NCBI GenBank assembly: GCA_964353335.1
Contig: CAYGVI010000003.1
Span: 130,695-194,694 of the forward strand
From: an uncultured Methanosarcinales archaeon
Lineage (GTDB): Archaea; Nanobdellota; Nanobdellia; Woesearchaeales; ARS49
Direction: 5' to 3'
Length of the DNA: 64,000 nt
This document shows positions 1-32,832 of the stretch, piece by piece (position 1 is the stretch's first letter; each line of letters begins with the position of its first letter). Position numbers and translations under genes: made by a program. The notes beneath the pieces were generated by a model. It was not told where the DNA came from. It saw only the letters and a program-made list of their open reading frames with translations, and searched no databases.

Positions 1-1076
1 TCATAGCGGCATCAATAAACGCGCACACTACTGAGACAATATTCTTTTACGGCTTCGTCATATTCATTTTAATCATCAAGTCACTTCTAAGGAAGATAAA
101 CAAGGCTGAGCTCCTGCAGTTCTTAAAAATACTTGGGCTCGCAACTCTTCTTGCAATCCTGCTGTCAGTAAATTATTTGCTGATTTTTTACAACGGATAT
201 GTCACCGAAAGCGCAAAAAGCTATATTGAATTCAAGCCAGTATCCCCTGAGGCATTTGAAGCAATCCGAGTTCCGCCTTTGCAGGATTTCCACTGGCCGG
301 TTCTTACTGCAATCCTGGTTGGAATAGGCGCGGTTATCCTGCTTATCAGAAAACAGCAGCACACCGCAATCCTGGTTTCAGCATACATGCTTTTGGTCGG
401 CCTTACAAATTACATAGGCATGCATTACCGCGCATTCCAGACAAGGTTCTTTTGGCCAATCTACCTTGCGCTATTTTTCGGGCTGGCATCATACATTGCA
501 GTCCATAAAGTAATAAAAGGAAAATCATTATACTTCATAATCAGCGTCATTCTCGCTGCTGTAATCTTCAACAGCTATTACCAGCCAGTGCATTCAGATA
601 TACCTTATCAAGGCCAATGGGACGGATTCAAGTGGCTAGAGCAGAATACTCCTGCTGATTCCCACACTCTGATGTTCTATGGCGACGGCTACAGCCAAGA
701 CATACGCCTCCTGAAGAGGATAAAATCATCAGTTGAAGTATCCGACTATGAACGTTTCTTGAAATCATTGCCTAACAGGACAATCATAGTGACCCCTTAC
801 ACGGAAAACTACATGAAATACCTACATCGCAAAAGCTTTTTCGAGTTCGGATATTATGTGCCAGAACTAAGCCTTAACCTTGGCGCCCAGCCCGCGGACA
901 TTTGCCAATATGATTATTATTTAATTGACAGGGCAAGCGCTTATGCACCACAACTGGTTCAGGCAAACATACAAATCGCAAACATATTTATCAACCATAA
1001 CATGAGCATCTCATTCCAGAATGATAATGTTGCAATACTGAAAAACAGCAATCCTGGCGGTGAATGCATTGGCTGA
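1..1076 (+). CDS. GT-C-fold integral membrane glycosyltransferase (ArnT/PMT-like), 5'-partial (continues upstream of window)
   Basis: Frame of ORF 177..1076 is open back to position 3 (no stop codon), so it is a truncated gene. It encodes many TM helices followed by a soluble C-terminal domain whose tail ([14 protein letters not shown]) and motif QNTPADS..F.G match paralog 2104..3732. Confidence 0.6.
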   Translation, partial: IAASINAHTTETIFFYGFVIFILIIKSLLRKINKAELLQFLKILGLATLLAILLSVNYLLIFYNGYVTESAKSYIEFKPVSPEAFEAIRVPPLQDFHWPVLTAILVGIGAVILLIRKQQHTAILVSAYMLLVGLTNYIGMHYRAFQTRFFWPIYLALFFGLASYIAVHKVIKGKSLYFIISVILAAVIFNSYYQPVHSDIPYQGQWDGFKWLEQNTPADSHTLMFYGDGYSQDIRLLKRIKSSVEVSDYERFLKSLPNRTIIVTPYTENYMKYLHRKSFFEFGYYVPELSLNLGAQPADICQYDYYLIDRASAYAPQLVQANIQIANIFINHNMSISFQNDNVAILKNSNPGGECIG

Positions 1077-1413
1077 ACTTGCACAAATCAAGCAGGAATT
1101 GAAATGGCTCGCAATTGGCTACATTGCGCTCTCAATAATCATATTCATCGCATTCCAGAAGAGCAGCATCATAGAAATCCTCAGGACAACTGCCAGCCTT
1201 TACTGGATGTTTGTCCTGCCAGGCTACACACTCTCATTATGCTCAAAGCAGGGATTTGTGGACAGGCTTATTATTGGAGTGTCAGTTCAGGCAGCAGTAT
1301 TTGGGCTTGCCAGCTATTATGCAGGCCTTGCAGGCTGGCATATAGCAACCCATGGGATTGTTCTGCCATTGATAAGCATCATAGTAGGATTGATTTTGTG
1401 GTGGAAAAAATGA
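1060..1413 (+). CDS. small 3-4 TM membrane protein (PGYTL motif), partner of GT-C genes
   Basis: 117 aa hydrophobic ORF; paralog of 3723..4070 (shared PGYTL motif); stop overlaps next start (ATGA at 1410-1413). Confidence 0.5.
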
Positions 1414-2102
1414 AAACCTTGTCAATAATAATGCCGGTATTTAACGAGAAAAAGACAATCCGCACAATCCTTAACAAAGTCCAGAAAGCAAAACTTCCTG
1501 TCAGCAAGGAAATCATAATTGTTGATGACTTCTCAACAGACGGCACGCGCAACATCCTGAAAAAGCTGAAAGGAGTCAAAATCTTTTACCACCCGCAGAA
1601 CAGGGGGAAGGGCGCGGCAATCCGCACAGGCTTTGGGCACGCGACAGGAGACATAATCACAATACAGGACGCTGACCTTGAGTACAACCCGCAGGAATAC
1701 GCAAAGCTCCTCAAACCGATTCTTGAAGGAAAGGCAAATGTGGTGTACGGCTCGCGGTTCAAGGGTCGGGCTTTCAGCTACCAGGCTCTTGCAATTCCCA
1801 CGCATTACATCGGCAACAGGTTCCTCTCGCTTGTCACGACATTATTATACTGCCAGTGGGTAAGCGACATGGAGACATGCTACAAGATGTTCACCAAGGA
1901 AGTCCTGCAAACTCTTAACCTGAAAGGAAACAGGTTTGAGATAGAGCCTGAGATAACTGCGAAAATAATGAAGAAAGGCTTCAAAATCCTTGAGCTTCCC
2001 ATAGTTTACCACCCAAGAAAGTGGAACGAGGGCAAAAAAATAAACTGGCGCGACGGAGTAAAGGCATTGTATTACCTGATGAAGTACCGCATAAGAGACT
2101 GA
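1410..2102 (+). CDS. GT2 glycosyltransferase, dolichyl/polyprenyl-phosphate sugar synthase (Dpm1-like)
   Basis: [33 protein letters not shown] motifs typical of GT2 DPM/DPG synthases. The real start is the ATG at 1410; the N-terminal 100 aa of the track ORF 1104..2102 is out-of-frame overlap with the previous gene. Confidence 0.85.
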
Positions 2103-2103
2103 T

Positions 2104-3732
2104 ATGGAGCGCGAAGAAATATTCACAATAATTGCAATCCTCGCAATAGTCTGCCTTGGATTTTTCGCAAGATATGCCCCATACAGCAGCGCAATAATCC
2201 ATAATTTTCCTGCAACAATAGGCGCAGGAGACCCTAACTCAAGGCTTAGCGAAGCAGAATACGTGCTTGAGTCAGGAAGCGCAAAGTTCATGCCTCCCTG
2301 GTTCACAGGCGAAAAAGACCTTATGACAACACAGCCGCCATTGAACCTCATAATCGCAGCAATGGTTGCCGGCGCTTCTGGAATAAACGTCTTTGATGCA
2401 TTCTACCTTGACGCAGTCCTTGCCTCAATCGGGGTTGCATTGTGCTTTTTTGTCCTGTTCTCAAGGATTTTCAAGAACAAAACCATGGGGCTTGTTGCGG
2501 CAGCAGCACTGATTTACCCCCTTGAGGAGTTTTTCAGCTATCAGATTAATATTGGAATGTATGCAAACTACTCAACAATACTTTTTTACCCGATAATTTT
2601 GTTGTTTGCTTATGAATTTTCATCAAAGCCATCCTGGTCAAATGCATTTTTGCTTGCTTTGGGCTTTGCAATGCAGTTTTTGATGCACTCAAGCGAAGCA
2701 GTTGTGTTTGGAGCAGCAGTTGGCTCTTACCTTTTGATTTTTGAGCACAAATCAATAGGCTGGAAAAAGCTAATTGGCGCAGGAATAATCTTTGCAGTCC
2801 TTATTGCGCCTTATTTTCCAATACTTTACTCAAACTTTATCCTGGCAAACTTTGGCGGAGAAGGTGAGGAAAGCTCGATTTTCCAGGGCAAGGAGATAAC
2901 AGCCCCAAGCTATGAGCCCCAGATTTTCCTCACAAATGTTGTCCACCCTGTGCTTTACATTCTCCTGCTACTTGCAATCGTCCTGACTTGGAAGAAAAAG
3001 GAATTCCGCTTCCTTAACTACATTTTCCTTTTCTACATCGCCGTTATTTTCATCCTTGCCAAGTTCGGCATAGGCACTTACTACGTCACAATCCGCACAA
3101 GGCCAATATTTTTCGTATTTACATATCCCTTAGTCGCAGTCGGTCTTTACACCCTTGCATCAAGCATCAGAAAATTCCTGCCTGTGAAAAAGGAAATATT
3201 TTTCACAGCACTTGTTGCCCTTCTGGTTATTGGACAAGGCTACCTTATCCACAAAGAAGCCCAGCAGCGCCAGGGAATTTTCACAGAAGATGCCTACAAA
3301 GGCTTCCAGTGGGTGAAGCAAAACACCCCTGAGGACTCAACAGTGCTTTGCTTTGGCTGCCAGCAGTTTGAAGGCCTCACATCACACCGCGTTATTGCCC
3401 AGCCAATGTATTGGGACGAAAGAAGCGTGAACCAGATGGCTGGCTTTGCCACAAACAGCACAAACTCTTCATTATGGCTTGAGCTTTGCGGCTATTCTGA
3501 CCAGCGCCTTGCAAAGAAAGGCTTGTTTGGGTTTGAAAAGCGCGGAATAACCGGCTATCATGAAAGTGACATTTGCGGGTTTGACTATTTCATAATCAAG
3601 CCTTATGGCAATGCAGGCCAATTGATGGTGCAAATAGGCCAGAGACTTTTGCAGAACAATGCAACACAAGCGTATTCAAACAACAATCTTGCAATCCTGA
3701 AGAATAACAACAAGGGAGGGAAGTGCATATGA
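2104..3732 (+). CDS. GT-C-fold integral membrane glycosyltransferase (ArnT/PMT-like) with C-terminal soluble domain
   Basis: 542 aa, about 11 TM helices, acidic residues in the first extracytoplasmic loop (GDPNSRLSEAEY), C-terminal about 190 aa soluble domain ending NNNKGGKCI like paralog 1..1076. Confidence 0.7.
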   Translation: MEREEIFTIIAILAIVCLGFFARYAPYSSAIIHNFPATIGAGDPNSRLSEAEYVLESGSAKFMPPWFTGEKDLMTTQPPLNLIIAAMVAGASGINVFDAFYLDAVLASIGVALCFFVLFSRIFKNKTMGLVAAAALIYPLEEFFSYQINIGMYANYSTILFYPIILLFAYEFSSKPSWSNAFLLALGFAMQFLMHSSEAVVFGAAVGSYLLIFEHKSIGWKKLIGAGIIFAVLIAPYFPILYSNFILANFGGEGEESSIFQGKEITAPSYEPQIFLTNVVHPVLYILLLLAIVLTWKKKEFRFLNYIFLFYIAVIFILAKFGIGTYYVTIRTRPIFFVFTYPLVAVGLYTLASSIRKFLPVKKEIFFTALVALLVIGQGYLIHKEAQQRQGIFTEDAYKGFQWVKQNTPEDSTVLCFGCQQFEGLTSHRVIAQPMYWDERSVNQMAGFATNSTNSSLWLELCGYSDQRLAKKGLFGFEKRGITGYHESDICGFDYFIIKPYGNAGQLMVQIGQRLLQNNATQAYSNNNLAILKNNNKGGKCI

Positions 3733-4070
3733 GCCTGAAATACCTTGCAGGAGCAGTAATTGCAGTCCTTGCCCTTACAACTTACTTTTCAGGCAGTATT
3801 TCAGAAGGATTCATACTCGGCATCTCCCTGATAATGCTTGGGCTGATTCCAGGCTACACTTTGCTTACTTTCCTCATGAAAGACCTTGAAGAGCTTGAAA
3901 AAACAATACTGGGATTCTTCATTGGCATCTGCTCAACTGCAATGCTGTTGTACTACCTTAATTTCATCGGCATTGCAAGCATAAAGCCAGTATTCAGCTA
4001 TGGCATTGGAATAATCTGCCTTGCTTTGCTCGCGGTAAAAAAGTTTAAACAGCCAAAAAAGGTGCAATAA
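3723..4070 (+). CDS. small membrane protein (PGYTL motif), paralog of 1060..1413
   Basis: 115 aa, 3-4 TM; same position relative to a GT-C gene as 1060..1413. Confidence 0.5.
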   Translation: MHMSLKYLAGAVIAVLALTTYFSGSISEGFILGISLIMLGLIPGYTLLTFLMKDLEELEKTILGFFIGICSTAMLLYYLNFIGIASIKPVFSYGIGIICLALLAVKKFKQPKKVQ

Positions 4071-5134
4071 TGTACCAGACAAGAACAATATTCAAGCCGT
4101 TTCTGCTTTTGACTGACATAATTGGCTATGTTTTTTTCTTCTGGCTCAAGTTCAGAAGGGTTCCAGAGCCTAAAAAGATTCTTTGCATTAGGATTGACCA
4201 CATTGGAGACGTGCTTCTCACAACCCCTGCATTCAGGGCTCTTAGAAAGCGCTATCCAAAGGCAAGGATTGATGTGCTTGTGCGCTCTTTTTCAAAAGAA
4301 ATACTTGACGGCAACAAAAACATCAGCAAAATTCTCACTTTTGACTTTCCCTGGCTTGGCTTGCACGGCAAAAAAGCATCCTGGAAAGAAACAATTAGCT
4401 TCATAAAACAGCTAAGAAAGGAAAAATATGATATCGCCATTGATTTCCACGCAGACCCGAGGAATATCTGGCTCGCAACAAAGGTCGCAAAGTACAGGAT
4501 TGGATATGGAATACGCGGATTTGGCTTCCTACTAAACAAAGTAGTGCCTTACAAGCCAGCAAGACACCAGATTCAGAGAAATTTTGACCTTGTCCGCGCG
4601 CTTGGAGCCAATGCAAGCCAAGAAATGGATTTCATAATCCCTGCATCTGCAAAAACAAAGGCAAAATCACTTCTCAAGCAGGCTGGAAATGCAAAACTTG
4701 TTGGAATTACTCCAGCAACAGGAAGAAAGCCAAAATACTGGCTTAATGAACGCTGGGCGCAGGTTGCCGATGCACTTGTTGACAAATATGGAGTAAAAAT
4801 AGTGCTTACAGGCGGAAAAGGAGATGCTAAAGACATTGAAGAAATAATCAGCAATATGACCCACAAAGAAAATATCATAAATCTTACAGGAAAAACATCG
4901 CTGAAAGAGCTTGGGGCAGTTATCCAGCAGTGCAGTCTCTTCCTAAGCCCTGACACAGGCCCTGCTCACATTGCAAGAGCGCTGAATGTTCCGCTACTTG
5001 AGCTCTTTGGCCCTGAAAATCCAAAGCAGTGGGGCTATAACGAGCCAAAGTTCAGGCACATAAAAAAAGACAAAATGGAAGACATAACAACAGAAGACGT
5101 AATTTCTGCAGTCAAACAAATGAGAGCGCTTTAA
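4070..5134 (+). CDS. GT9 family glycosyltransferase (ADP/GDP-heptose heptosyltransferase, RfaF/WaaC-like)
   Basis: ILCIRIDHIGDVLLTTPAFRALRKRYP...GITPATGRKPKYW...LTGKTSLKELGAVIQQCSLFLSPDTGPAHIA: canonical GT9 heptosyltransferase motifs. Confidence 0.85.
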   Translation: MYQTRTIFKPFLLLTDIIGYVFFFWLKFRRVPEPKKILCIRIDHIGDVLLTTPAFRALRKRYPKARIDVLVRSFSKEILDGNKNISKILTFDFPWLGLHGKKASWKETISFIKQLRKEKYDIAIDFHADPRNIWLATKVAKYRIGYGIRGFGFLLNKVVPYKPARHQIQRNFDLVRALGANASQEMDFIIPASAKTKAKSLLKQAGNAKLVGITPATGRKPKYWLNERWAQVADALVDKYGVKIVLTGGKGDAKDIEEIISNMTHKENIINLTGKTSLKELGAVIQQCSLFLSPDTGPAHIARALNVPLLELFGPENPKQWGYNEPKFRHIKKDKMEDITTEDVISAVKQMRAL

Positions 5135-7115: not shown

Positions 7116-7124
7116 GGGGTTGCA

Positions 7125-8747
7125 GTGAAAACAAATTACAGGGAATTGTATCTTGAAAAATCACTCGCAGAAATACCACGGCTTCTCGGACTAATTGACA
7201 GAAACCCCGCATCCCAGACTTACGGCTGTTTTGACCGCAATTTCTGGCACTACAAGACTGTGGATTTCGCAACAGGAATGGCACAGCTCGGTGTTTTACC
7301 TCTTGCTTATGTCTATACGCAAAAACTGAAGAACAACCCGTATTACAAGCAGCCAAGAATAAGAGAGCTTATCCTTGCTGGAATGCGTTTTATGCCCAAA
7401 TGCTCGCACAAGGACGGCACAACTGATGAGTTTTATCCATTTGAGCGCGCACTTGGGGCAACAGCATTCTCATTGATTGCAGCCACAGAGGCATATTTGC
7501 TGCTTGGCGAGAACCATCCTGACATTGTGGCGTTTTTCAAAAAGCGCGCAAACTGGATGGCGCGCAATACAGAGCCGTCAGTTATTGCAAATCATCAGGC
7601 AGGTGCAGCATTGGCACTTGCGAATGTCTGGAAGATAACTGGCGATTCAAGATACCTCAAGGCAGCAAGGCAGAAAATCAAAAACACCCTTGCGTGGATG
7701 TGTGATGAGGGCTGGTTCAAGGAATACGAGGGCTGTGACCCTGGCTATCACACGTTTACAGTAGATTATCTTGCAAAATACTACAAAAAGACAGGCGACG
7801 AATCTGTGCTTCCTGTGCTTAAGAAAGCAGTTGAGTTCAGCACGTACTTTATCCACCCTGACGGAAGTTATGCAGGGGAATATGGCAGCAGGAACACTGC
7901 GCATTTCCTTCCTCATGGCTTTGAAATTCTTGGAAAGCACTTCCCTGTAGCATTGGCAATTGTCACTAAATTCAGCGAAGGGCTTGCAAACAACAAAAAC
8001 GAGTTCATGAATGATGAAAAATACTTTTTTTACAACCTGATAAACTATTTCCAGACATACCTTGACTGGAATGAAAAGCGCCCGGGCCCTTTTGAGCACA
8101 AAAAAGACTTTGAAAAATACTTTCCAAGGGCACGCATTTACATTTGCAAGCACAAGGACTGGTATGTGGTGTGCTCACTCGCAAAAGGCGGAGTAGTCAA
8201 AGCGTTCAAAAAAGGCAAACTAGTGTTCCAGGACACAGGAATTGTTGCAAAACTGACAAATGGGCGAGTTATTGCAAGCCAGGTCATAGACCAGGCATAC
8301 AAAATCAGTATAGGACCCCATAAACTTTCTGTTACAGGACAGTTCCACTCAATCAACCGCGAGACAATGACCTCTTTCAAGATGATTGCGTTCAGGATGA
8401 TTCTGCTTGTCCTTGCCCGCGTGTGGTGGATGGGCGCCCTTGTAAAAAATCTCTTAATAAAGCGCCTTATCACCAGAAAAAAACACGAAAAAGCGTGGTT
8501 CAGGCGCGACATAAGCATCAGCGACAAAATCTCTGTCACTACAACCCTCAAGCTCGGAGCAGGCAGAAAGGCAGGCAGGCTCTGGCACAGCACAGATGCA
8601 GCAGTCATCCACGTCCCAACAAGCCGTTACTTCCAGGAAGGCGCAATGACGCCCTGGACAGACTGCTCAAATGCAATTCCAGAACTTAATAGGAAAAGAA
8701 GAATTACGATTGAACGAAATACAGAAATGGTGGCGATAACCAAATGA
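7125..8747 (+). CDS. heparinase II/III-like (alpha/alpha toroid + beta-sandwich) protein
   Basis: GTG start with GGGGG RBS. N-terminal region with alpha/alpha-toroid-like repeats and a C-terminal beta-rich domain. The common genomic partner of AsnB-like amidotransferases in polysaccharide loci. Confidence 0.45.
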   Translation: MKTNYRELYLEKSLAEIPRLLGLIDRNPASQTYGCFDRNFWHYKTVDFATGMAQLGVLPLAYVYTQKLKNNPYYKQPRIRELILAGMRFMPKCSHKDGTTDEFYPFERALGATAFSLIAATEAYLLLGENHPDIVAFFKKRANWMARNTEPSVIANHQAGAALALANVWKITGDSRYLKAARQKIKNTLAWMCDEGWFKEYEGCDPGYHTFTVDYLAKYYKKTGDESVLPVLKKAVEFSTYFIHPDGSYAGEYGSRNTAHFLPHGFEILGKHFPVALAIVTKFSEGLANNKNEFMNDEKYFFYNLINYFQTYLDWNEKRPGPFEHKKDFEKYFPRARIYICKHKDWYVVCSLAKGGVVKAFKKGKLVFQDTGIVAKLTNGRVIASQVIDQAYKISIGPHKLSVTGQFHSINRETMTSFKMIAFRMILLVLARVWWMGALVKNLLIKRLITRKKHEKAWFRRDISISDKISVTTTLKLGAGRKAGRLWHSTDAAVIHVPTSRYFQEGAMTPWTDCSNAIPELNRKRRITIERNTEMVAITK

Positions 8748-10207
8748 ACTTTAAGCATTTTGTCCGTAGCGGCATTATTGTCAGCATTCTGTATGGAATT
8801 GCGGCGGTTGTGGGCTATCTGACAAGGCTTTTTCTTTCACACTACGTAAGTATAGATTTATTTGGCTTATTCTATTCAGTATTAACTTTCGTACTTGCAT
8901 TCTCTATATTTTGCGATTTAAGTTTAGGGCAATTACTGCAAATTTACATCCCACAGCTCAGAAAGAAGCGACAATGGGGAAAGATCAAAGGATACATCAC
9001 ATTAGTTTTGGGCTGGAATCTCATAATGCGGTTGATTATTATTGCGATGTTAATTGCAACTGCAAAATTCTTTGCTATTAACTACTTTAAGAACCCAGCA
9101 TCTGAAATCCTCATCTATCTTTTCGCTTTTGCATTCCTATTGAGCGGATTTGGCAGTTTTAGTGCAGGACTTATAGGATTCGGTTTCTTCCGCACAGTGG
9201 CGTTCTTAAATTTTTTCCGCATACTGCTTTATCTATTTGGCTTATACGCAATTTTCTGGATTAAGCCAAACCTGATAGCCGCCACCTGTGCCTATGTTTT
9301 CTCAGTACTTGCTACAGATATTATGACCTTTATTTTATTCATAAAGCGTGCAATGCCTTCATTCTTCAAAATCAAGATGCTGTTGACAAAAGAGATGGTT
9401 TTTGATACATTCAAAATGGGGATAACGCTAACACTTTGCTCTCTCGCATTGCAAGTTATTGGCATTGCAGATACCCTTACAATAACACATTTTAGGCCGT
9501 TAGCGGAATTGGGGTTATATCAGATGGCATTGCCTACGGCAACATTCATTACATCAGTTATCAGCTGGCCAATAAATCTCATGATGCCTGCCACAATTGC
9601 ATATCTTGAAAAATTACAGCAGAGAAAAGCCATCCAACAAGTAAGTCATTTCCTCTTATTTTCAGTTATTCCGATTACTTCATGCGTGATCGTATTCTCT
9701 GGAGAAATCCTTCAAATCCTGTTTAACCAAAGCAGCACTCTTGGCACGTGGATGCTCAGATTACTTGCAATAAATCAAGCAATATTTTTATTTATTCAAT
9801 TTTCAATAAGCAGTCTCATTGGATTAAAACGTGTAAAAGAGCTTCTTAAGATAAGCATCATTATAACTAGCATCATCGTGTTATTAAGTATTTTGGGCGG
9901 TTTTCTTTTTAATGCAATTGGAATAATACTAGGATATCTCTTTTCCTTCATTATATTCTTATTACTTGCGAGGCACACTATTCATAAATTTTGCGGAACA
10001 AAACCAAATTTCATGGTATTTATGCGCGGGTGTGCATTAAGTTTAATTTGCATTGCCGTCATGAGCATAATACGCTTATTAAATATGCCAGTAATCTTTA
10101 AACTTATTTTAGTGGGAATCTGTAGTTTACCATTTTATTTTTGGCTTACGGTAAGTTTTGGTTTAATAAAACCAAGTCTTATAATAAAACGCTTTAAACG
10201 GCAATGA
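8744..10207 (+). CDS. Wzx-like oligosaccharide flippase (MOP/polysaccharide biosynthesis protein family)
   Basis: 487 aa, about 12-14 TM helices, lies in a glycan locus; low-GC codon usage. Confidence 0.75.
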   Translation: MNFKHFVRSGIIVSILYGIAAVVGYLTRLFLSHYVSIDLFGLFYSVLTFVLAFSIFCDLSLGQLLQIYIPQLRKKRQWGKIKGYITLVLGWNLIMRLIIIAMLIATAKFFAINYFKNPASEILIYLFAFAFLLSGFGSFSAGLIGFGFFRTVAFLNFFRILLYLFGLYAIFWIKPNLIAATCAYVFSVLATDIMTFILFIKRAMPSFFKIKMLLTKEMVFDTFKMGITLTLCSLALQVIGIADTLTITHFRPLAELGLYQMALPTATFITSVISWPINLMMPATIAYLEKLQQRKAIQQVSHFLLFSVIPITSCVIVFSGEILQILFNQSSTLGTWMLRLLAINQAIFLFIQFSISSLIGLKRVKELLKISIIITSIIVLLSILGGFLFNAIGIILGYLFSFIIFLLLARHTIHKFCGTKPNFMVFMRGCALSLICIAVMSIIRLLNMPVIFKLILVGICSLPFYFWLTVSFGLIKPSLIIKRFKRQ

Positions 10208-13482: not shown

Positions 13483-13528
13483 AGCTATGCCTTGTGGAAA
13501 TTCCACTCATAATGACGAGGGGGGCATA

Positions 13529-22061: not shown

Positions 22062-22258
22062 GGACGACCACAACATTTTAAAACAGGGTCTGGCTTGCCT
22101 TCAGTCGTGGAAGAGCAGCCAAAGAAAGTGTGGAACTGGCAAGTCAAGGCAGCCATTATTGCAGTTATACTGTATCTCGGGGTTGCGCTGTCCTTGTACA
22201 TGAAGCTAAAGCACCTGCCCGGGCCTTATTATGGCGGAGACCTTTATGCCCACCATGG
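22062..22258 (+). repeat. direct repeat copy L (truncated 5' fragment of gene 26747..28540), about 95% identical to 26768..26964
   Basis: Nucleotide identity visible directly (ggacgaccacaacattttaaaa ... tttatgcccaccatgg). Encodes GRPQHFK..VEEQPKKVWNWQVKAAIIAVILYLGVALSLYMKLKHLPGPYYGGDLYAHHG, then diverges and stops. Confidence 0.85.
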
Positions 22259-22408
22259 GTTTTGTGCTTGAAAAAATCTGTGTAGTAATGGCAGGTGGAT
22301 CCTGCGAATCAAGGGTGATTTAACACATTTAGCTTTTTAGCCGTTGCTGATCATTTGCCTGTCAGCAAAGCAAGCGTTACTGCTTATTTATGCAAATCGC
22401 ATAGAAAA

Positions 22409-23993: not shown

Positions 23994-24980
23994 TTAAATT
24001 TCATGGCCGCCGAGATAAACAATTCTTGAACCTTCAGGGTCAAATGCGAATTTAATCTCGCGCAGGGGCAGGCTTTCCCTAAGCTTCTGCTGTTTGTCCT
24101 TGTCGCAGTAAAGCAGCAGGAACCCGCCGCCGCCTGCGCCCAGCAGCTTTCCGCCTGTGGCGCCTGATTCAAGGGCTTTTTTGTAATAAGCGTCAATGAT
24201 GTCATTGGATATTCCCGATGCAATCTCTTTTTTCAGCAGCCAGCCTTTGTTAAGTATTTCCCCGAATGATGAAAGGTCGCCGCCAGTGAGGGCATCGCGC
24301 AGTTCAAACACCAAATCACGCATTTTACACAGCTTCAGCCATTTTTCCTGTTTGAGAGTCTCTTTTTTCTGTTCAGTCAGGATTGTCCGCGACTGGCGCG
24401 TGATTCCTGTGTAAAAAAGCACAAGGTTGTCCTCAAGCGCTTTTTTTGTTTCATCCGGGATTTTGATCGGCTCCACAGCAACACTGCCGTCAGGATTGAA
24501 CCTTATCACATTAAGGCCGCCGAGCGCACAGGCATATTGGTCCTGTTTTCCAATAGGCTCCTTAAGCTCATCAATCTCAATCTCGCACGCCTCTTTTGCA
24601 AGAGTATGGTTTTCCTTGTTCTCATTGAGCGCGGTATAAAGCGCCTTGAGCAGACCGACAGTAAATGCTGATGATGACCCCAAGCCTGTTCCTGACGAGG
24701 GAATATCTGCAAAACTTGCCATTTCCAAAGGCATCTTGTTCTTTGTTTTCAGGAAGCACTGCCTTATGAGGGGGTGCTGTATCTCCTGCGCATCCTTGAT
24801 AAGCTCTGTCCTTGCGTATTTCAGCAGGATATTGTCCTCAAACTGCCTGTTTACTGCAATGTACATGTATTTTTTGATTGTTGTGGACAATACTGTCCCC
24901 TGCTCTTTCTCATAAAATTCCTTCAGGTCAGTTCCGCCGCCTGCAAAACTAATGCGGAATGGGGTTTGTGTGACAATCAC
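23994..24980 (-). CDS. hddA: D-glycero-alpha-D-manno-heptose 7-phosphate kinase (GHMP kinase)
   Basis: MIVTQTPFRISFAGGGTDL..., GHMP kinase motif PLEMASFADIPSSGTGLGSSSAF. Sits in an operon with a nucleotidyltransferase and next to a GmhB-like phosphatase. Confidence 0.75.
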   Translation of the reverse strand: MIVTQTPFRISFAGGGTDLKEFYEKEQGTVLSTTIKKYMYIAVNRQFEDNILLKYARTELIKDAQEIQHPLIRQCFLKTKNKMPLEMASFADIPSSGTGLGSSSAFTVGLLKALYTALNENKENHTLAKEACEIEIDELKEPIGKQDQYACALGGLNVIRFNPDGSVAVEPIKIPDETKKALEDNLVLFYTGITRQSRTILTEQKKETLKQEKWLKLCKMRDLVFELRDALTGGDLSSFGEILNKGWLLKKEIASGISNDIIDAYYKKALESGATGGKLLGAGGGGFLLLYCDKDKQQKLRESLPLREIKFAFDPEGSRIVYLGGHEI

Positions 24981-25714
24981 GTTTTCACCTTTCCTGTCCG
25001 CAGGTCATTCTCTGCCTCTTTTAACCTTTCGGCAGTTCCGATGTCTTTTAGGTATTCTGTGGTGTAATATCCGTAGACCTTGAATTTGTTCTTAACCAGC
25101 GATGGAAGGATATCTTTTCCAAAATCAAAACTGCCTGATTCCGGAATCAGTGAGAAGCATTCGGGGTTAAGTATGTACAATGCCGCATTGGTGATGTTGC
25201 CGTAATCCGCATTTCCCGGCTTGTGCACAAGCTTTTCAACTTCGCCTGACTTGTTCATTATCACCACGTCGCTGTCTTCAGGGTGGCGTGATTCGTGCAC
25301 GACCAGTGTTGCCTGCGCACCGCGCTCAAAATGGAAATCAATAATTTTTCTCAGGTCAATGTTAATCAGCACATCGCCGTACAAGACCACAACAGGCTGT
25401 TTTTCCTTCTCAAGGTGCTTTAATCCGCCGCAGGTCCCCATTGGCTCTTTTTCTACAAAATATTCTATTGCGCAGTTGAAGCGCCCGCCGTTTCCAAAAT
25501 AATCCTCGATTTTTTTTGAAAGATATCCTGTTTTCAACAGAAACCTTGAAAGCCCGTTTTTCCTTGCATGCGACAGGATGTGCTCAAGGATTGGCTTTCC
25601 AAGCAGGTCAATCATTGGTTTTGGCTTGTCAGTTGCAATACCCTGCAGCCTTTTCCCAACTCCTCCTGCAATAATGACCGTTTTAATGTCGCCCAGCGGA
25701 ATATCCATTCCCAC
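24977..25714 (-). CDS. hddC: D-glycero-alpha-D-manno-heptose 1-phosphate guanylyltransferase (NTP_transferase)
   Basis: KTVIIAGGVGKRLQGIATDKPKPMIDLLGKPILEHIL: sugar-1-P nucleotidyltransferase signature; overlaps hddA by 4 nt. Confidence 0.75.
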   Translation of the reverse strand: MGMDIPLGDIKTVIIAGGVGKRLQGIATDKPKPMIDLLGKPILEHILSHARKNGLSRFLLKTGYLSKKIEDYFGNGGRFNCAIEYFVEKEPMGTCGGLKHLEKEKQPVVVLYGDVLINIDLRKIIDFHFERGAQATLVVHESRHPEDSDVVIMNKSGEVEKLVHKPGNADYGNITNAALYILNPECFSLIPESGSFDFGKDILPSLVKNKFKVYGYYTTEYLKDIGTAERLKEAENDLRTGKVKT

Positions 25715-26394: not shown

Positions 26395-26426
26395 TCTTTA
26401 AATACGTTCTCTGTGAGTTTTATTGC

Positions 26427-26648
26427 ATGGCCACAAGCTCAGCATGCCTTGTTGTCTGGAATGGCGAGGATGAGATACGCGGATGCCTAGAAAGCATAAA
26501 GAAAGTTGTTGACGAAATTATAGTTGTGCATGACGGTCCATGCAGTGACAGGAAGAAGGTTGATGAAAGACAGCAGCACGAAGAAAAGACAATAATCCTC
26601 AATGCTCAGCCTGCGGGCAAGCATCAGCCTGAACACTTACGCTGCTAG
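26427..26648 (+). pseudogene. N-terminal fragment of a GT2 glycosyltransferase (truncated)
   Basis: ACLVVWNGEDEIRGCLESIKKVVDEIIVVHDGPCSD resembles a GT2 N-terminus, but the ORF ends after 73 aa with unrelated sequence. Confidence 0.45.
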
Positions 26649-28540: not shown

Positions 28541-28584
28541 TCCATAAGCTTTTTAAGCATCCTGCAAGGAGCACAAATAGAAAA

Positions 28585-29631
28585 ATGGCACAAAAACAAC
28601 TTACATTCCTTATTACCGGCGGGGCAGGATTTCTCGGCCACAACCTTGCACGATATCTGTTAAAGAAAGGCTGCAAAGTAAGGACAGTTGACCTGGGTGA
28701 TTTTGATTATCCTGACATAAAGGGAGTACAGCACTTCAAGGGGGACATAAGAAACAAGGAAATACTGCGAAAGGCAGCAGCAGGTGTGGACAGTATTGTG
28801 CACGCAGCTGCAGGACTGCCTTTATGGAAGCCCGCTGAAATACGCTCTGTCAACATAAACGGCATCAAGGCAGTATTTGCTGTTGCTGAGGAGCTTGGAA
28901 TTGAGCGCGTTGTGCACATCTCAAGCACTGCTGTTTACGGAATCCCTGACCACCATCCTCTTTACGAAAATGACAGGCTTGTGGGAGTCGGTCCATATGG
29001 CGAGAGCAAGGTTGCTGCTGAAAAAATTGCAGAATCTTTCAGGAACAGGATGTGCGTCCCAATCCTCAGGCCCAAATCATTCATTGGCGCAGGGCGCCTC
29101 GGCGTATTTGACGTTCTTTTTGACTGGGTAAGGCGCGGAAAAAACATTCCAATGGTCGGCTGGGGAAACAATCTCTACCAGCTTTTGCATGTTGAGGATT
29201 TGAACCAAGCAATCTGGCTTGCATCAACAAAGCCGGCGAAGATTGCGAATGACACTTTCAATGTCGGCGCTGAAAAATTCAGCACAATGAAAAAAGACTA
29301 TCAGGCATTGCTCAACTATGCAGGCTTTCACAAGCGCGTGATAGGGACTCCGCCCTGGCTTGTGATTAACACTCTCAGGATTCTTGAAAAGCTCAAGCTC
29401 TCGCCCTTGTACAGGTGGGTTTATGAGACAGCTGATAAGGATTCTTTTGTTTCGATAGACAAAGCAAAGAAAGTGCTCGGCTTCAGGCCAAAGTACAGCA
29501 ATGTTGATGCCCTGATTGACAGCTACAAGTGGTATTTGCAGCACTACAAGGAATACCAGGGCAAAACAGGAGTCACGCACAGGGTTCCTTGGAAGCAGGG
29601 CATCCTGTCCATAGTAAGATGGTTTTTCTAA
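28585..29631 (+). CDS. NAD-dependent epimerase/dehydratase (extended SDR)
   Basis: ITGGAGFLGHNL (GxxGxxG) and YGESK (YxxxK). Confidence 0.85.
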   Translation: MAQKQLTFLITGGAGFLGHNLARYLLKKGCKVRTVDLGDFDYPDIKGVQHFKGDIRNKEILRKAAAGVDSIVHAAAGLPLWKPAEIRSVNINGIKAVFAVAEELGIERVVHISSTAVYGIPDHHPLYENDRLVGVGPYGESKVAAEKIAESFRNRMCVPILRPKSFIGAGRLGVFDVLFDWVRRGKNIPMVGWGNNLYQLLHVEDLNQAIWLASTKPAKIANDTFNVGAEKFSTMKKDYQALLNYAGFHKRVIGTPPWLVINTLRILEKLKLSPLYRWVYETADKDSFVSIDKAKKVLGFRPKYSNVDALIDSYKWYLQHYKEYQGKTGVTHRVPWKQGILSIVRWFF

Positions 29632-31828: not shown

Positions 31829-31880
31829 GGATTTACCGATTAGTGAAGAATTTATAAAACTATCGTAGTTATCGTCGGAA

Positions 31881-31943
31881 ACACAAGCAGCGGCCGACGG
31901 AGTCGTCCCGCTTGTGCTTCGCTCAGCACAAGCTTAATAAACC
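31881..31943 (+). repeat. about 60-nt promoter-proximal repeated element, copy A (upstream of ubiA-like gene)
   Basis: agcggccgacggagtcgtcc..gctt..hairpin..gcacaagcttaataaa; compare copy B. Confidence 0.6.
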
Positions 31944-31963
31944 CTCCGCCTGTCGCAAAACAC

Positions 31964-32827
31964 ATGGCAATCATTGATTACGTAAAAGTGCTCAGGCCTT
32001 TGCAGTGGTACAAGAATTTGCTTGTCTTCCTGCCGCTCATATTTGTAGGCAGGCTTATGGAATTGAACCTTGTCTGGCTGGCATTTCTCGGATTTGTGAG
32101 CCTTTGCCTGTGCGCCTCATTCAACTACATCATAAATGACATTGTTGACAGGAAAAAAGACAGGGCGCACCCTGAAAAGCGCACAAGGCCGATTGCCGCA
32201 GGAAAAATTTCAGTAATCACAGCGCTCATTTGGGGAATTTTACTGCTTGCTGCGGGGCTTTATCTTGCGTTCAGTCTTAACAGGAATTTCTTTTACGCAG
32301 CAGGATTTATTGTTGTTCTCACACAGATGTACTCATTCCTCCTGAAGAGGATTGCATTTGCAGACATTCTTACTGTCGCGATTAATTTTGTAGTTCGCGC
32401 AATATCCGGGGCGTTCATTATCGGTGTAATTATTTCACCCTGGCTTGTGCTTTGCACGTTCTTTTTTGCGCTTTTCCTGCTTTCCGGAAAGCGATACGCA
32501 GACCTTGCCCTACTTGGCTCAAAGGCTGCAATGCACAAGGAAACACTCAAAGTTTACACAAAAGAGGTCGCAAACGCATTAATGATTGTTGCAACTGCAT
32601 TGCTGATTGTTGCATACGGCGCTTTTGCACTGCTCGGAACCCACCCTCAGCTCGCATTTTCCCTTCCTTTTGCCCTGTTTGTAATTTTCAGGTATTTCTC
32701 ATTGATTTATGTGGGCTCGCCAATCGCGCGCCATCCAGAGCTTGTTTTCAGGGACTGGAAAATGCTTGTTGGAATGCTCCTCTGGGCAATTGCAACATTT
32801 ATTGCGCTGTATGTTTATCCGAAATGA
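31964..32827 (+). CDS. UbiA-family prenyltransferase resembling decaprenyl-phosphate phosphoribosyltransferase (DPPR synthase)
   Basis: NDIVDRKKDRAHPEKRTRPIAAG: this NDxxDxxxD..HPxKRxRPIAAG signature is the one recalled for Rv3806c-type phosphoribosyltransferases, not the DGGGP-synthase signature. About 8 TM. Confidence 0.7.
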   Translation: MAIIDYVKVLRPLQWYKNLLVFLPLIFVGRLMELNLVWLAFLGFVSLCLCASFNYIINDIVDRKKDRAHPEKRTRPIAAGKISVITALIWGILLLAAGLYLAFSLNRNFFYAAGFIVVLTQMYSFLLKRIAFADILTVAINFVVRAISGAFIIGVIISPWLVLCTFFFALFLLSGKRYADLALLGSKAAMHKETLKVYTKEVANALMIVATALLIVAYGAFALLGTHPQLAFSLPFALFVIFRYFSLIYVGSPIARHPELVFRDWKMLVGMLLWAIATFIALYVYPK

Positions 32828-32832
32828 AAATT

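Follow-up and report, generated by a model that had tools for sequence, protein, structure and literature searches.

A mosaic glycosylation island of a Woesearchaeota archaeon with a predicted polyprenyl-phosphate pentofuranose module

Glycosylation by three components, a lipid-phosphate sugar synthase, a flippase and an extracytoplasmic transferase, is already known from the AglD/AglR/AglS, Arn and Gtr systems and from the pentofuranose systems of mycobacteria and Citrobacter. In Haloferax volcanii, AglD/AglR/AglS add the final mannose of the S-layer N-glycan: a GT2 enzyme loads a single sugar on cytoplasmic dolichyl phosphate, translocation requires a Wzx/MOP-type protein, and on the cell exterior a GT-C-type enzyme adds the sugar to the protein-bound glycan (PMC3871713). 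The mycobacterial decaprenyl-phosphate arabinose pathway comprises Rv3806c, Rv3807c, DprE1/DprE2 and the AftA/Emb GT-Cs, while the pentofuranose side chains of Citrobacter youngae O1/O2 involve PPPRS-PRP, a MATE flippase, the GT136 GT-C and the SDR epimerase ORF13 (PMC11127046).

We analysed a 64,000-nucleotide stretch of DNA (the window) from a Woesearchaeota/Nanoarchaeia (DPANN) archaeon with a small genome; homologues and homologous loci come from the same groups, and an Archaea_SRP RNA detected in the window supports its archaeal origin. Sequence, Pfam matches and gene context define positions 1-32830 as a glycosylation gene island of ~33 kb, with six GT-Cs, four Dpm1/ArnC/GtrB-type GT2s, two MOP (Wzx/MATE) flippases and two small 4-TM proteins. 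The three-step gene logic (synthesis of a lipid-linked monosaccharide, flipping, and transfer by an extracytoplasmic GT-C) recurs several times in the island, as a preliminary description of the sequence had proposed with essentially right gene coordinates. The right boundary is real, as a 5S rRNA (32911-33023) is followed by the NFACT, SecD/F, ABCE1 and Topo VI genes and the DNA right of 32830 is housekeeping; the left limit is the window edge, so that a larger island is possible. The analysis directly establishes which genes are present, their families and folds, the conservation of residues, the synteny and the insertion scar, and from sequence, fold and gene context we infer the functions of all island genes. 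The Haloferax system and the island are both archaeal and share the same three protein classes, but AglD/R/S adds one step to an AglB-delivered oligosaccharide, whereas the island combines six GT-Cs with five donor synthases, in a window without AglB and almost without cytoplasmic glycosyltransferases. None of the haloarchaeal Agl NCBIfam models reaches its cut-off in the island.

We consider it probable that this is a mosaic surface-glycan island serving mainly extracytoplasmic glycosylation from polyprenyl- or dolichyl-phosphate monosaccharides, with a pentofuranose module as its core. In the cytoplasm, the four Dpm1/ArnC-type GT2s would move sugars from nucleotide sugars to lipid phosphate, one loaded sugar probably being heptose made via a kinase, nucleotidyltransferase and GmhB cassette, and a UbiA-fold enzyme would provide a fifth donor by transferring phosphoribose from PRPP to lipid phosphate in the manner of Rv3806c. 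Tailoring of the sugars would fall to methyltransferases, a B12-radical SAM enzyme and an amidotransferase, and flipping of the lipid-linked sugars to the two MOP transporters, with an EamA pair and the small 4-TM proteins as possible helpers. The six GT-Cs would then pass sugars singly to a cell-surface acceptor, most likely S-layer or other glycoprotein glycans.

The GT-Cs are as follows (Pfam gathering scores: PMT_2, 26.1; DUF6541, 29):
3..1076, + strand: g01, C-terminal part of a GT-C of the g03/g24 subfamily, clipped by the window start (357 residues)
2104..3732, + strand: g03, GT-C; DUF6541 37.6 bits (passes), PMT_2 20.6 bits (sub-threshold)
13487..15139, + strand: g12, GT-C of a rare family; PMT_2 23.6 bits, sub-threshold alone
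15136..16920, + strand: g13, PMT_2-type GT-C with eleven TM segments; PMT_2 64.6 bits, PMT 27.3 bits
18368..20035 (earlier start 18344), + strand: g16, PMT_2-type GT-C, 555-aa gene call; PMT_2 83.1 bits, PMT 38.7 bits
26747..28540, + strand: g24, AftA-like GT-C with a C-terminal alpha/beta domain; AftA is its top fold match

PMT_2 or DUF6541 passes, family profiles compared by hhalign, and BLASTP of g01 against g03 bear out the earlier suggestion that all six multi-TM proteins belong with GT-C families. Specifically, g01 (six hydrophobic segments) is 27% identical to the C-terminal half of g03 (residues 323-542, E 4e-16), with which it shares the C-terminal motif ...AILKN.N.GG.CI, and g03, which has at least nine TM segments, matches the g24 family over 435 columns (hhalign probability 94.8%, E 5e-8). 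The g12 family, with 97 representatives among 1.84 billion proteins, matches PMT_2 in 19 of 32 members (best E 3e-17), and its profile matches that of the g24 family (96.7%, E 4e-10). In all five full-length proteins TM1 is followed by an acidic motif, which is GAGD in g03, contains an invariant Asp within DEAKYL in the g12 family, and is invariant in the g24 family as well. The modules are not repeated copies, as the suggested massive iteration would imply: GT-C identity within the island does not exceed 27% (the value for g16 and g13), and two or more lineages are represented, g13 and g16 (PMT_2-type) versus g01/g03/g24, with g12 intermediate. Furthermore, outside the g24-g28 block, gene content varies among relatives and GT-C/partner combinations differ; the island is a mosaic.

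The candidate lipid-sugar synthases, flippases and small membrane proteins are:
1410..2102, + strand: g02, Dpm1-type GT2, 230 aa, no TM; Glycos_transf_2 124.5 bits
12515..13453, - strand: g11, Dpm1/ArnC-type GT2 with two C-terminal TM helices, 312-aa gene call; Glycos_transf_2 92 bits
16954..17664, + strand: g14, dolichyl-phosphate mannose synthase-like GT2, no TM; Glycos_transf_2 119 bits
23202..23927, - strand: g20, Dpm1/GtrB-type GT2, no TM; Glycos_transf_2 57.9 bits
8744..10207, + strand: g08, MOP/Wzx-type flippase with twelve TM segments; Polysacc_synt 54.4 bits
20526..22025, - strand: g18, MOP flippase with Wzx, MurJ and MATE signatures; Polysacc_synt 86.5, MurJ 43.8, MatE 41 bits
1060..1413, + strand: g02a, small protein with 3-4 TM segments, partner of g01
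3723..4070, + strand: g04, small protein with four TM segments, partner of g03

Consistent with their description as Dpm1-like, all four GT2s pass Glycos_transf_2, and the named enzymes that they match best are polyprenyl-phosphate sugar synthases (AglJ, PpgS, ArnC, PgfS, P. furiosus DPMS (PfDPMS)) and also GtrB. The NCBIfam scores, all far under the equivalog cut-offs, are 121.8 bits (AglJ) and 61.8 bits (PpgS) for g02, and 150.6 bits over the full length of the AglJ model and 116.5 bits for dolichyl-phosphate hexose transferase for g11; for g20 the best models are PgfS and ArnC. In the PDB, g14 matches PfDPMS (5mlz) with E 1.6e-59 and 204.5 bits over residues 5-226, g11 matches it with 2e-19, and g20 matches PfDPMS and GtrB (sll0501) with 1e-10 and 1.6e-7. 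Like Gram-negative ArnC and GtrB, g11 has C-terminal TM helices, and it aligns with ArnC over its full length; membrane helices are missing from the other three GT2s, which counts against the lipid-donor reading. The PMT_2/ArnT-type GT-Cs likewise recall the Arn system, but lipid A and O-antigen, the Arn and Gtr acceptors, do not exist in archaea. A 332-aa ORF at 1104-2102 is an artefact as a GT2 gene; the g02 start read from the sequence is 1410, as first described.

Both flippases, 25% identical to each other, pass Polysacc_synt, in line with their earlier designation as Wzx-like. The small proteins are real-looking and translationally coupled, the g02a stop overlapping the g02 start codon (ATGA), and they share a PGYTL motif and weak similarity (E 0.011). 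Their proposed identity as GtrA did not hold: the Pfam search gave no GtrA or other significant match for either, and the island, unlike Gtr loci, has no GtrA homologue. At a related locus, L019, a g02a homologue (36% identity, E 3e-22) lies 3' of a g01-like GT-C, and g02a could be a flippase or a subunit.

The remaining genes outside the g24-g28 block and the heptose cassette are:
4070..5134, + strand: g05, GT9 (heptosyltransferase family); Glyco_transf_9 132 bits
5181..7115, + strand: g06, AsnB-type glutamine amidotransferase; Asn_synthase 277.6 bits plus GATase_7, TIGR01536 485 bits (above cut-off)
7125..8747, + strand: g07, 540-aa protein; only weak GH127 and DUF6288 matches, precomputed Pfam Ulvan_lyase_N
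10204..10995, + strand: g09, SAM methyltransferase; Methyltransf_11 70.3 bits
11079..12434, + strand: g10, B12-binding radical SAM enzyme; Radical_SAM 95 bits, B12-binding 81 bits
17661..18371, + strand: g15, SAM methyltransferase; Methyltransf_23 66.5 bits
20032..20553, + strand: g17, SAM methyltransferase, 173-aa gene call; Methyltransf_11 48.7 bits

Probable roles are sugar amidation for g06 and C-methylation for g10. Cytoplasmic glycosyltransferases are very scarce, g05 being the sole non-Dpm1 Leloir glycosyltransferase of the island; it scores 105-147 bits, under the cut-offs, with heptosyltransferase III/I/II models and is kept beside the g24 block at three related loci (L003, L005, L011). 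GT9 enzymes normally use lipid-linked cores, two Wzx-type flippases are typical of polysaccharide loci, AftA, the closest structural relative of g24, acts on polysaccharide, and the window has no AglB. These features would suit an island that makes a free or lipid-anchored polysaccharide (a capsule, EPS or lipoglycan, comparable to mycobacterial arabinan/lipoarabinomannan) instead of decorating protein, its GT-Cs extending a glycan or lipid primer by polymerisation, either in succession or processively. We regard this as unlikely, since Pfam annotation of the island genes and a WWDYG motif scan gave no initiating phosphoglycosyltransferase, Wzy polymerase or chain-length regulator (nor AglB), related clusters in other archaea adjoin S-layer genes and AglB, directly so in a related marine archaeon, and the sole characterised archaeal precedent, AglD/R/S, is protein N-glycan decoration (PMC3871713). 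WWDYG, as previously noted, is absent from all frames of the window, and AglB may simply sit outside it. The accompanying claim of a mismatch to the AglB pathway overreaches, because the Haloferax AglD/AglR/AglS logic is the last step of AglB-dependent N-glycosylation (PMC3871713).

At the core of the island is a conserved five-gene block (26747-32827) consisting of g24 and:
28585..29631, + strand: g25, extended SDR (epimerase/dehydratase; HpnA/3-beta-HSD-like); Epimerase 124.7 bits, HpnA 111 bits
29628..30560, - strand: g26, extended SDR translationally coupled to g27; Epimerase 91.9 bits, 3Beta_HSD 62.9 bits
30557..31828, - strand: g27, FAD oxidoreductase of amine-oxidase/PPO/phytoene-desaturase fold; Amino_oxidase 111 bits, PRK07233 245.5 bits (cut-off 252)
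31964..32827, + strand: g28, UbiA-fold polyprenyl-phosphate phosphoribosyltransferase (Rv3806c-like), 287 aa, UbiA domain only

Conservation of the block extends to seven or more related genomes (L002, L003, L004, L009 and L011, and clipped by contig ends in L005 and L010); g25 is 85-93% identical within these conserved blocks and 61% in L019. Like mycobacteria, the island has a UbiA-fold PRPP:polyprenyl-phosphate phosphoribosyltransferase, an adjacent pair of flavoprotein and NAD(P) reductase, and a GT-C, g24, whose nearest solved structure is AftA and which carries a C-terminal alpha/beta domain and an extracellular-loop Asp with a basic residue at i+4 (D76/H80 in g24, D128/R132 in AftA; PMC10265970). 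In particular, the residues with which M. tuberculosis Rv3806c binds PRPP and polyprenyl phosphate are retained in g28 (roles in PMC10994848): among 40 archaeal homologues, K28, Y70, N73, D77, R90, Y138, K143 and K191 are invariant, R22 and K87 are nearly so, and Y157 is replaced by an invariant Phe. Lipid-P-ribofuranose would be made and possibly epimerised by the FAD oxidase and SDR reductase, with g26 as candidate keto-reductase and the pair a functional analogue, not homologue, of DprE1/DprE2, before g24, a predicted pentofuranosyltransferase, transfers the sugar. Unlike in mycobacteria, g27 has an amine-oxidase/PPO fold and not the VAO fold of DprE1, the SDRs are extended and not classical, there is no PAP2 phosphatase, g24 is only 11% identical to AftA, and the host is an archaeon without arabinogalactan. 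No 5-phosphatase for the phosphoribosyl-lipid could be assigned among the genes, which counts against the scheme, as does the fold of g27, a fold whose usual chemistry is the dehydrogenation of C-C or C-N bonds.

The block also resembles the Citrobacter locus in its PPPRS, its auxiliary SDR epimerase-type genes, a GT-C with an extra C-terminal domain, and a MOP/MATE-type flippase beside the GT-C in relatives (g18 adjoins g24, divergently transcribed, in L002, L003 and L011). It differs in that g28 lacks a fused HAD (PRP) domain, a FAD enzyme is added, and the system is archaeal, its carrier presumably dolichyl and not undecaprenyl phosphate. Four distant g24 homologues (L013, L014, L016, L018) adjoin a Dpm1-type GT2 instead, tying the g24 family to lipid-phosphate sugar donors. 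Taken as a whole, the block predicts an archaeal polyprenyl-phosphate pentofuranose donor pathway; it resembles the mycobacterial arabinan pathway, of which our literature search found no description in archaea.

A different role for g27/g26, perhaps with g25, would be to modify the lipid carrier, for example by converting scavenged polyprenol to a dolichol-type carrier (saturation/re-reduction) as in the eukaryotic SDR plus reductase route, which would leave plain lipid-P-ribofuranose as the g24 donor. The model of g27 (pLDDT 94.2) has CgoX, PPO, phytoene desaturase and PF1083 as top Foldseek matches, placing it nearest enzymes of hydrophobic isoprenoids and tetrapyrroles (HpnE 78 bits), and g25 and g26 are nearest HpnA, OleD and 3-beta-HSD-type SDRs acting on lipids. 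In general, DPANN archaea have no lipid synthesis of their own and depend on foreign carriers. The FAD/SDR pair, in which g26 always lies beside the FAD gene even where gene order is reversed (L019), accompanies a GT2 at some loci and a UbiA synthase at others. It is found in L019 with a GT2 and no UbiA gene nearby, and L023 and L025 have UbiA without the pair, so that the pair is not ribose-specific. The latter absences also speak against carrier modification, which should place the pair wherever UbiA occurs, and general maturation genes would not be expected, at every locus, to separate a particular GT-C from its donor synthase. We therefore think carrier modification improbable; the favoured reading is a possible sugar epimerisation, and UbiA without the pair fits the idea of an optional epimerase (PMC11127046).

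That g28 is an ordinary UbiA prenyltransferase (a DGGGP synthase, or a quinone-type or other aromatic enzyme) merely bordering the island, with no pentofuranose module, is very unlikely: JGI pipelines label homologues '4-hydroxybenzoate polyprenyltransferase', the gene position is conserved beside housekeeping genes in L025, and the DPPRS score is under the equivalog cut-off (187 versus 234), yet DPPRS models give 127-187 bits (187.3 for the best) against 22-34 bits for DGGGP synthase (31) and 4-hydroxybenzoate prenyltransferase models, Rv3806c (8j8j, E 1.3e-28) beats AfUbiA by 22 orders of magnitude in the PDB (generic UbiA, 5e-6), NCBI names several homologues DPPRS, and five genomes or more keep g28 tightly linked to g24-g27. 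Moreover, the (nearly) invariant K28, Y70, K87, R90 and K143 bind the 5-phosphate or pyrophosphate, and the phosphoribose-binding sites among them are not conserved in other UbiA enzymes (PMC10994848).

Beside the g24 block, 22263-26767 is an inserted cassette, likely for NDP-heptose, flanked by a 201-nt duplication:
22062..22262, + strand: duplicated g24 5' end, left copy of the 201-nt direct repeat, 95% identical to 26768-26968
22409..23092, - strand: g19, TylF-type sugar O-methyltransferase; TylF 84.4 bits
23994..24980, - strand: g21, HddA-like GHMP sugar kinase; GHMP_kinases_N and _C
24977..25714, - strand: g22, sugar-1-phosphate nucleotidyltransferase; NTP_transferase 118.6 bits
25810..26394, + strand: g23, GmhB-like HAD phosphatase; PRK08942 159 bits (cut-off 178), TIGR00213 144.5 bits (149.6)
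26427..26648, + strand: GT2 pseudogene, a truncated N-terminal remnant in a 73-aa ORF

The left repeat copy encodes ...PGPYYGGDLYAHHGF followed by a stop, a Logan contig assembly breaks within it, and it is the scar left by the cassette insertion. The GT2 remnant matches Glycos_transf_2 positions 1-40 (E 4e-4) before its stop. The D-glycero-D-manno-heptose 7-phosphate kinase model gives g21 188.9 bits, as with all equivalog-level matches bearing on sugar or lipid-donor assignments under its cut-off (600), and g22 scores 156.7 bits with mannose-1-P guanylyltransferase and 82 bits with HddC. No GmhA for the heptose route is present, which counts against it. The preliminary description mentioned neither this cassette nor the evidence for its insertion, nor the block of UbiA, FAD, SDR and AftA-like GT-C genes.

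One further feature lies outside the island:
34192..34925, - strand: two neighbouring ArnE/ArnF-like EamA half-transporters (124 and 120 aa; 45 and 20.8 bits, gathering score 28.2)

Although comparable to ArnE/F, this pair occupies a conserved housekeeping position, with the same placement relative to UbiA, NFACT and SecDF in L025. In L019, an EamA pair lies within a GT-C/SDR/FAD/GT2 cluster, and the pair is a candidate lipid-sugar flippase.

Pfam and NCBIfam scans of all ORFs, together with hydropathy profiles and all-against-all BLAST, gave a map of the island (window 1-32830), with which the coordinates of the preliminary description essentially agree. The genes are as follows (TM, transmembrane; GT-C, extracytoplasmic membrane glycosyltransferase).

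3-1076, +, g01, GT-C (partial; cut by the window start)
1060-1413, +, g02a, small TM protein
1410-2102, +, g02, GT2
2104-3732, +, g03, GT-C
3723-4070, +, g04, small TM protein
4070-5134, +, g05, GT9
5181-7115, +, g06, AsnB-type amidotransferase
7125-8747, +, g07, no assigned family
8744-10207, +, g08, MOP flippase
10204-10995, +, g09, methyltransferase
11079-12434, +, g10, B12-radical SAM protein
12515-13453, -, g11, GT2 with two TM helices
13487-15139, +, g12, GT-C
15136-16920, +, g13, GT-C
16954-17664, +, g14, GT2
17661-18371, +, g15, methyltransferase
18368-20035, +, g16, GT-C
20032-20553, +, g17, methyltransferase
20526-22025, -, g18, MOP/MATE flippase
22409-23092, -, g19, TylF methyltransferase
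23202-23927, -, g20, GT2
23994-24980, -, g21, GHMP kinase
24977-25714, -, g22, nucleotidyltransferase
25810-26394, +, g23, GmhB-like phosphatase
26747-28540, +, g24, multi-TM protein
28585-29631, +, g25, SDR
29628-30560, -, g26, SDR
30557-31828, -, g27, FAD oxidoreductase
31964-32827, +, g28, UbiA family

Much of the island is organized in two dense arrays of same-strand genes whose stop and start codons overlap, one from the window start to 12434 and the other at 13487-20553. In particular, the stop codon of g02a overlaps the start of g02 at 1410; a longer, 332-aa ORF (1104-2102) was rejected as the GT2 gene because its first 100 codons are non-coding-like and overlap g02a. On the left the island runs to the window edge, where g01 is truncated, and may continue beyond it; the right-hand boundary is real, since only housekeeping genes lie beyond 32830 (NFACT, SecD/SecF, an M50 peptidase, a DEAD helicase, ABCE1 and topoisomerase VI). 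A 5S rRNA gene (32911-33023, +) separates the island from these genes, and is solitary, with neither a 16S nor a 23S rRNA gene within the window; an archaeal SRP RNA is located at 63538-63811. Nearly all homologues of the island's gene products, and nearly all of 17 related loci, belong to metagenome-assembled genomes of Candidatus Woesearchaeota/Nanoarchaeia (DPANN). In the first array, g07 (540 aa) weakly matches GH127 and DUF6288 and has a precomputed Ulvan_lyase_N match; it may be a glycan-processing enzyme.

The six membrane proteins previously taken for GT-C enzymes are supported as such by Pfam, profile-profile, fold and BLAST evidence. Specifically, g13 and g16 match PMT_2 well over the gathering score, g03 passes DUF6541 and gives a near-complete but sub-threshold PMT_2 alignment, and BLAST aligns g01 with the C-terminal half of g03 at 27% identity. 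By itself g12 falls slightly under the PMT_2 threshold; its family is rare (97 representatives among 1.84 billion proteins), and 19 of 32 members match PMT_2, with a best E-value of 3e-17. The g24 family comprises 38 proteins without a Pfam domain, and g24 has no sequence match in Pfam, NCBIfam or PDB searches. Single-sequence PDB searches with g16 and g03 likewise returned no match and a PDB search with the g12-family profile returned nothing significant; a fold search and profile-profile comparison had to take their place. The AlphaFold model of g24, built with 32 homologues, is confident (pLDDT 88.5, pTM 0.85); its membrane domain is helical and is followed by an alpha/beta domain at the C-terminus, and the fold search identified the protein as having a GT-C fold. 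Furthermore, profile-profile comparison aligns the g24 family with the g12 family (96.7% probability, E 4e-10, 424 columns) and with g03 (94.8%, E 5e-8, 435 columns), and gives no convincing link with g16 (9%).

The five full-length GT-C enzymes show 7-11 hydropathy peaks, within the ~7-13 TM helices typical of the superfamily, and carry an acidic motif right behind TM1 (GAGD, GADE, FGD, SDE and GGD). A conserved acidic first-loop residue, which the preliminary description had proposed to look for, is present in the g24 and g12 families: D76 is invariant in 32 g24-family sequences, and in the g12 family just three alignment columns are invariant, one of them D52, the Asp of a DEAKYL motif right behind TM1. 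The GD/DE motifs of g03, g13 and g16 are read in single sequences, and the N-terminus of g01 lies outside the window. In g24, D76 is followed at i+4 by H80, an arrangement reminiscent of the catalytic pair D128/R132 of AftA (PMC10265970). Adjacency to Dpm1-type GT2 or UbiA-type synthases suggests that the GT-C enzymes may use polyprenyl-phosphate-linked donors.

The four GT2 proteins are Dpm1-like as far as sequence can tell, their nearest relatives being DPMS, ArnC, GtrB, AglJ and PpgS and not processive or oligosaccharide GT2s, and all four score under the NCBIfam equivalog cut-offs. In PDB searches, the Dol-P-Man synthase (DPMS) of P. furiosus is the best match of g14 (1.6e-59, over the whole catalytic domain), g11 (2e-19) and g20 (1e-10), with ArnC or GtrB next; g11 matches ArnC over its full length including two TM helices, and the second match of g20 is GtrB. 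The best NCBIfam matches of g02 are AglJ and PpgS. The two C-terminal TM helices are confined to g11; g02, g14 and g20 (~230-240 aa) have none, and such helices are likewise missing from the models of PpgS and of haloarchaeal dolichyl-phosphate hexose transferase (213-226 positions). Both flippases belong to the MOP family, and g18 passes not only Polysacc_synt but also MatE (41 bits, gathering score 24.9) and MurJ in Pfam. The small TM proteins, which would have completed the set as GtrA, are not GtrA proteins, with no PF04138 match for g02a or g04 even at E<=10. They are not noise: each GT-C of the g01/g03 type is followed by a ~115-aa protein that has 3-4 TM segments and contains a PGYTL motif, common to g02a and g04, and the arrangement recurs in a distant marine archaeon (L019), where a g02a homologue (14164-14496; 36% identity, E 3e-22) comes after a g01-type GT-C. 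Pfam searches gave no match for this family, and g04 is very weakly similar to the N-terminus of DUF1616. Two overlapping genes for 4-TM EamA half-transporters resembling ArnE/ArnF (34192-34566, -; 34563-34925, -) lie 1.4 kb past the right boundary of the island and are candidate lipid-sugar flippases. The pair keeps its position in locus L025 (UbiA, NFACT, EamA x2, SecD, SecF), and in L019 it sits inside a GT-C/SDR/FAD/GT2 cluster.

The preliminary description had seen in the island an iterated GT2 plus GT-C module; recent tandem duplication does not fit the sequences, which are at most 27% identical among the GT-Cs and at most 30% among the GT2s, and the island is instead a mosaic of anciently diverged components. 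Within 20-29 kb, the one long DNA repeat is a 201-nt direct repeat (22062-22262 and 26768-26968, 95% identical) that corresponds to the 5' end of g24 and is a recombination or insertion scar. Between the copies lie the TylF methyltransferase g19, the GT2 g20, the kinase g21, the nucleotidyltransferase g22 and the GmhB-like g23; relatives lack this 4.5-kb cassette and have g18 and g24 as immediate neighbours, which together with the flanking repeat indicates that the cassette was inserted here. A public assembly of the same DNA breaks inside the repeat. The products of g21, g22 and g23 resemble HddA (189 bits, cut-off 600), a sugar-1-P guanylyltransferase or HddC (82 bits, cut-off 300 for the HddC model) and GmhB (159 bits, cut-off 178, and 144.5 bits, cut-off 149.6, only just below), respectively, and together with the GT9 gene g05, of the heptosyltransferase family, suggest an NDP-heptose route; no GmhA (SIS isomerase) is found among the island genes. 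At the cassette edge, a 73-codon ORF (26427-26648, +) that aligns to GT2-domain positions 1-40 only and then reaches its stop is probably a GT2 pseudogene remnant. The G+C content falls to 0.36-0.40 at 8-12 kb and 0.38 at 22-24 kb, vs ~0.45 elsewhere in the island; these stretches (8001-12000 and 22001-24000) coincide with the Wzx/methyltransferase/radical-SAM and TylF/GT2 genes, which suggests separately acquired cassettes.

Two described systems come closest to the core of the island. One, the mycobacterial DPA pathway, consists of Rv3806c, a phosphatase, DprE1/DprE2 and the Aft/Emb GT-C enzymes. We infer that the block g24-g28 is a conserved, undescribed archaeal counterpart of this and of the bacterial polyprenyl-phosphate pentofuranose pathways, with all functions predicted. 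Of the loci retrieved through the g24 family, five (L002, L003, L004, L009 and L011) have the order g24-g25-g26-g27-g28 intact, and two more (L005 and L010) show it as far as the contig end. In block-bearing loci g25-g28 are 72-96% identical and the remaining island is replaced or rearranged; g18 directly adjoins g24 in L002, L003 and L011. More distant g24 homologues (26-35% identity; L013, L014, L016 and L018) instead adjoin a Dpm1-type GT2, which independently links this GT-C family to lipid-phosphate sugar donors. In L019, an S-layer gene and an AglB-rotamase fusion are followed by a g24-like GT-C, a g26-like SDR, a g27-like FAD enzyme, a GT2, the two EamA half-transporters, a g25-like SDR and, later, a g01-like GT-C with its g02a-like small protein, while a cluster in an Aenigmarchaeota genome (L022) comprises an S-layer gene, a g28-like UbiA gene (52% identity), the FAD enzyme and a g24-like GT-C, together with a GT2 and a PMT_2 GT-C. 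The other of the two closest systems, the bacterial three-component system, consists of a PPPRS-phosphatase fusion, a MATE flippase, a GT136 GT-C and an optional SDR epimerase (PMC11127046). As in that system, a MATE/MOP flippase (g18) and a GT-C (g24) are encoded with the PPPRS-like g28; unlike that system, no HAD phosphoribose phosphatase is fused to g28 or associated with it. Specifically, g28 is a 287-aa protein comprising a UbiA domain only, and the sole HAD protein is the GmhB-like g23, which is part of the inserted heptose cassette; block-bearing relatives lack it.

The best PDB match of g28 is Rv3806c, the decaprenyl-phosphate phosphoribosyltransferase (1.3e-28, vs 5e-6 for AfUbiA), and among NCBIfam models the three for DPPRS score highest (127-187 bits), with scores under the equivalog cut-offs (NF008977, 187.3 vs 234 bits; NF008978, 163.5 vs 207). 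Structures of Rv3806c define the ligands of the PRPP 5-phosphate, ribose, pyrophosphate and decaprenyl phosphate (PMC10994848). Thirteen such residues were mapped (R22, K28, Y70, N73, D77, K87, R90, Q135, Y138, K143, Y157, K191 and K208); g28 is identical at ten, and departs from Rv3806c at Y157 (Phe, a natural mycobacterial variant), Q135 (Thr) and K208 (Glu). Among 40 archaeal homologues, down to 45% identity, eight of the ligand positions are invariant and two nearly so. DGGGP synthase and 4-hydroxybenzoate prenyltransferase models score only 22-34 bits on g28, and both assignments were rejected on these scores, the Rv3806c match and the conservation of the ligand residues; judged by its sequence, g28 is no generic prenyltransferase. 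NCBI lists a protein identical to g28, encoded on a 488-kb contig, and names some more distant Woesearchaeota and Nanoarchaeia homologues DPPRS. No paper describing the DPPRS pathway in DPANN or other archaea turned up in the literature searched, and one may exist elsewhere.

The model of g27 (pLDDT 94.2) has an amine-oxidase fold, with coproporphyrinogen and protoporphyrinogen oxidases (CgoX, PPO), phytoene desaturase and the uncharacterised PF1083 as closest structures. Its Pfam fold class, Amino_oxidase/NAD_binding_8, and these neighbours exclude a DprE1-type VAO (FAD_binding_4) flavoprotein, so that any role shared with DprE1 would reflect analogy rather than homology. A UDP-galactopyranose mutase was also rejected: the weak match is confined to the N-terminal FAD-binding region, and no mutase occurs among the top 50 structural matches. 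The SDRs g25 and g26 are extended SDRs nearest to HpnA, OleD and 3-beta-HSD; g26, of the Epimerase/3Beta_HSD type, has an adh_short match of just 19.6 bits. It overlaps g27 by 4 nt, and the two genes adjoin in all loci. The g27/g26 pair might act on the lipid carrier and not on the sugar. The pair also occurs with a GT2 and no nearby UbiA gene (L019), L023 and L025 have UbiA but not the pair, and the amine-oxidase fold is typical of enzymes acting on hydrophobic C-C or C-N bonds; these patterns count against a ribose-specific epimerase and make a lipid-carrier role a serious rival, albeit one that we consider improbable.

For pentofuranose donor synthesis and transfer, the predicted sequence of events is as follows. 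The residue-level evidence and synteny suggest that g28 makes lipid-P-phosphoribose, from which a phosphatase would remove the 5-phosphate; g27 and g26, perhaps with g25, may then re-configure the sugar by oxidation and reduction; either g18, of the MOP family, or the two EamA proteins would flip the donor; and g24, on fold-level evidence and synteny, would transfer the pentofuranose outside the cell. A type I phosphodiesterase/alkaline-phosphatase-superfamily gene lies directly downstream of the g28-like UbiA gene in L023 (8895-10436), and the window has another gene of that Pfam family 13.5 kb from g28 (46312-47541, -), which might encode the missing 5-phosphatase. Taken as a whole, a dedicated dolichyl/polyprenyl-P pentofuranose pathway in DPANN archaea (Woesearchaeota/Nanoarchaeia and relatives), with lipid-P-ribofuranose made by an Rv3806c-type phosphoribosyltransferase, a previously unrecognised g27/g26-type epimerase that replaces DprE1/DprE2 non-orthologously, an arabino/xylo product, an AftA-like GT-C of an unclassified family and an S-layer or surface-glycan acceptor, is a tentative proposal to which we give well below an even chance. 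If true, it would represent arabinan-type chemistry outside Bacteria. The phosphoribosyltransferase-FAD/SDR-AftA-like block predicts archaeal glycans containing pentofuranose, and its enzymes are candidates both for a new epimerase of lipid-linked sugars and for a GT-C family that is still unclassified. The DprE1 and Emb/Aft pathway is best known as an anti-tuberculosis drug target, and would be extended to the third domain of life.

The observation of a GT-C/GT2/flippase island is confirmed. Its interpretation is supported in part: the gene logic fits lipid-linked monosaccharides, whereas iteration of a module and independence from the AglB pathway are not supported. The island encodes six GT-Cs, five lipid-sugar synthases and one other Leloir glycosyltransferase, a composition that fits elaboration of a surface glycan largely outside the cell from lipid-P-monosaccharides. 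Pfam scans and a motif search found no initiating phosphoglycosyltransferase, Wzy or AglB in the island, and the window gave neither an STT3 profile match nor the WWDYG motif, whose absence the preliminary description had noted. Independence from AglB cannot be demonstrated on this ground, since the AglD/AglR/AglS step of Haloferax N-glycosylation is an archaeal precedent for the same logic (PMC3871713), which is thus not foreign to the AglB pathway. The AglB and S-layer neighbourhoods in L019 and L022 suggest that the acceptors are glycoprotein glycans; a free polysaccharide or a lipoglycan is a less likely product. An island of 33 kb dominated by GT-Cs suggests that the surface glycan is built mostly outside the cell, from single sugars on lipid carriers, and in this balance it would differ unusually from the archaeal pathways characterised so far, which centre on AglB. 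The genomes of DPANN archaea are tiny, and a life attached to host cells is presumed for them; their surface glycans, about which to our knowledge almost nothing is known, are therefore probably central to host recognition. The AglB/STT3 of L019 (671-4108, 1145 aa), which is fused to a parvulin-type rotamase (PPIase), is encoded directly after the S-layer protein gene, and the same fusion occurs in L020 and L021.
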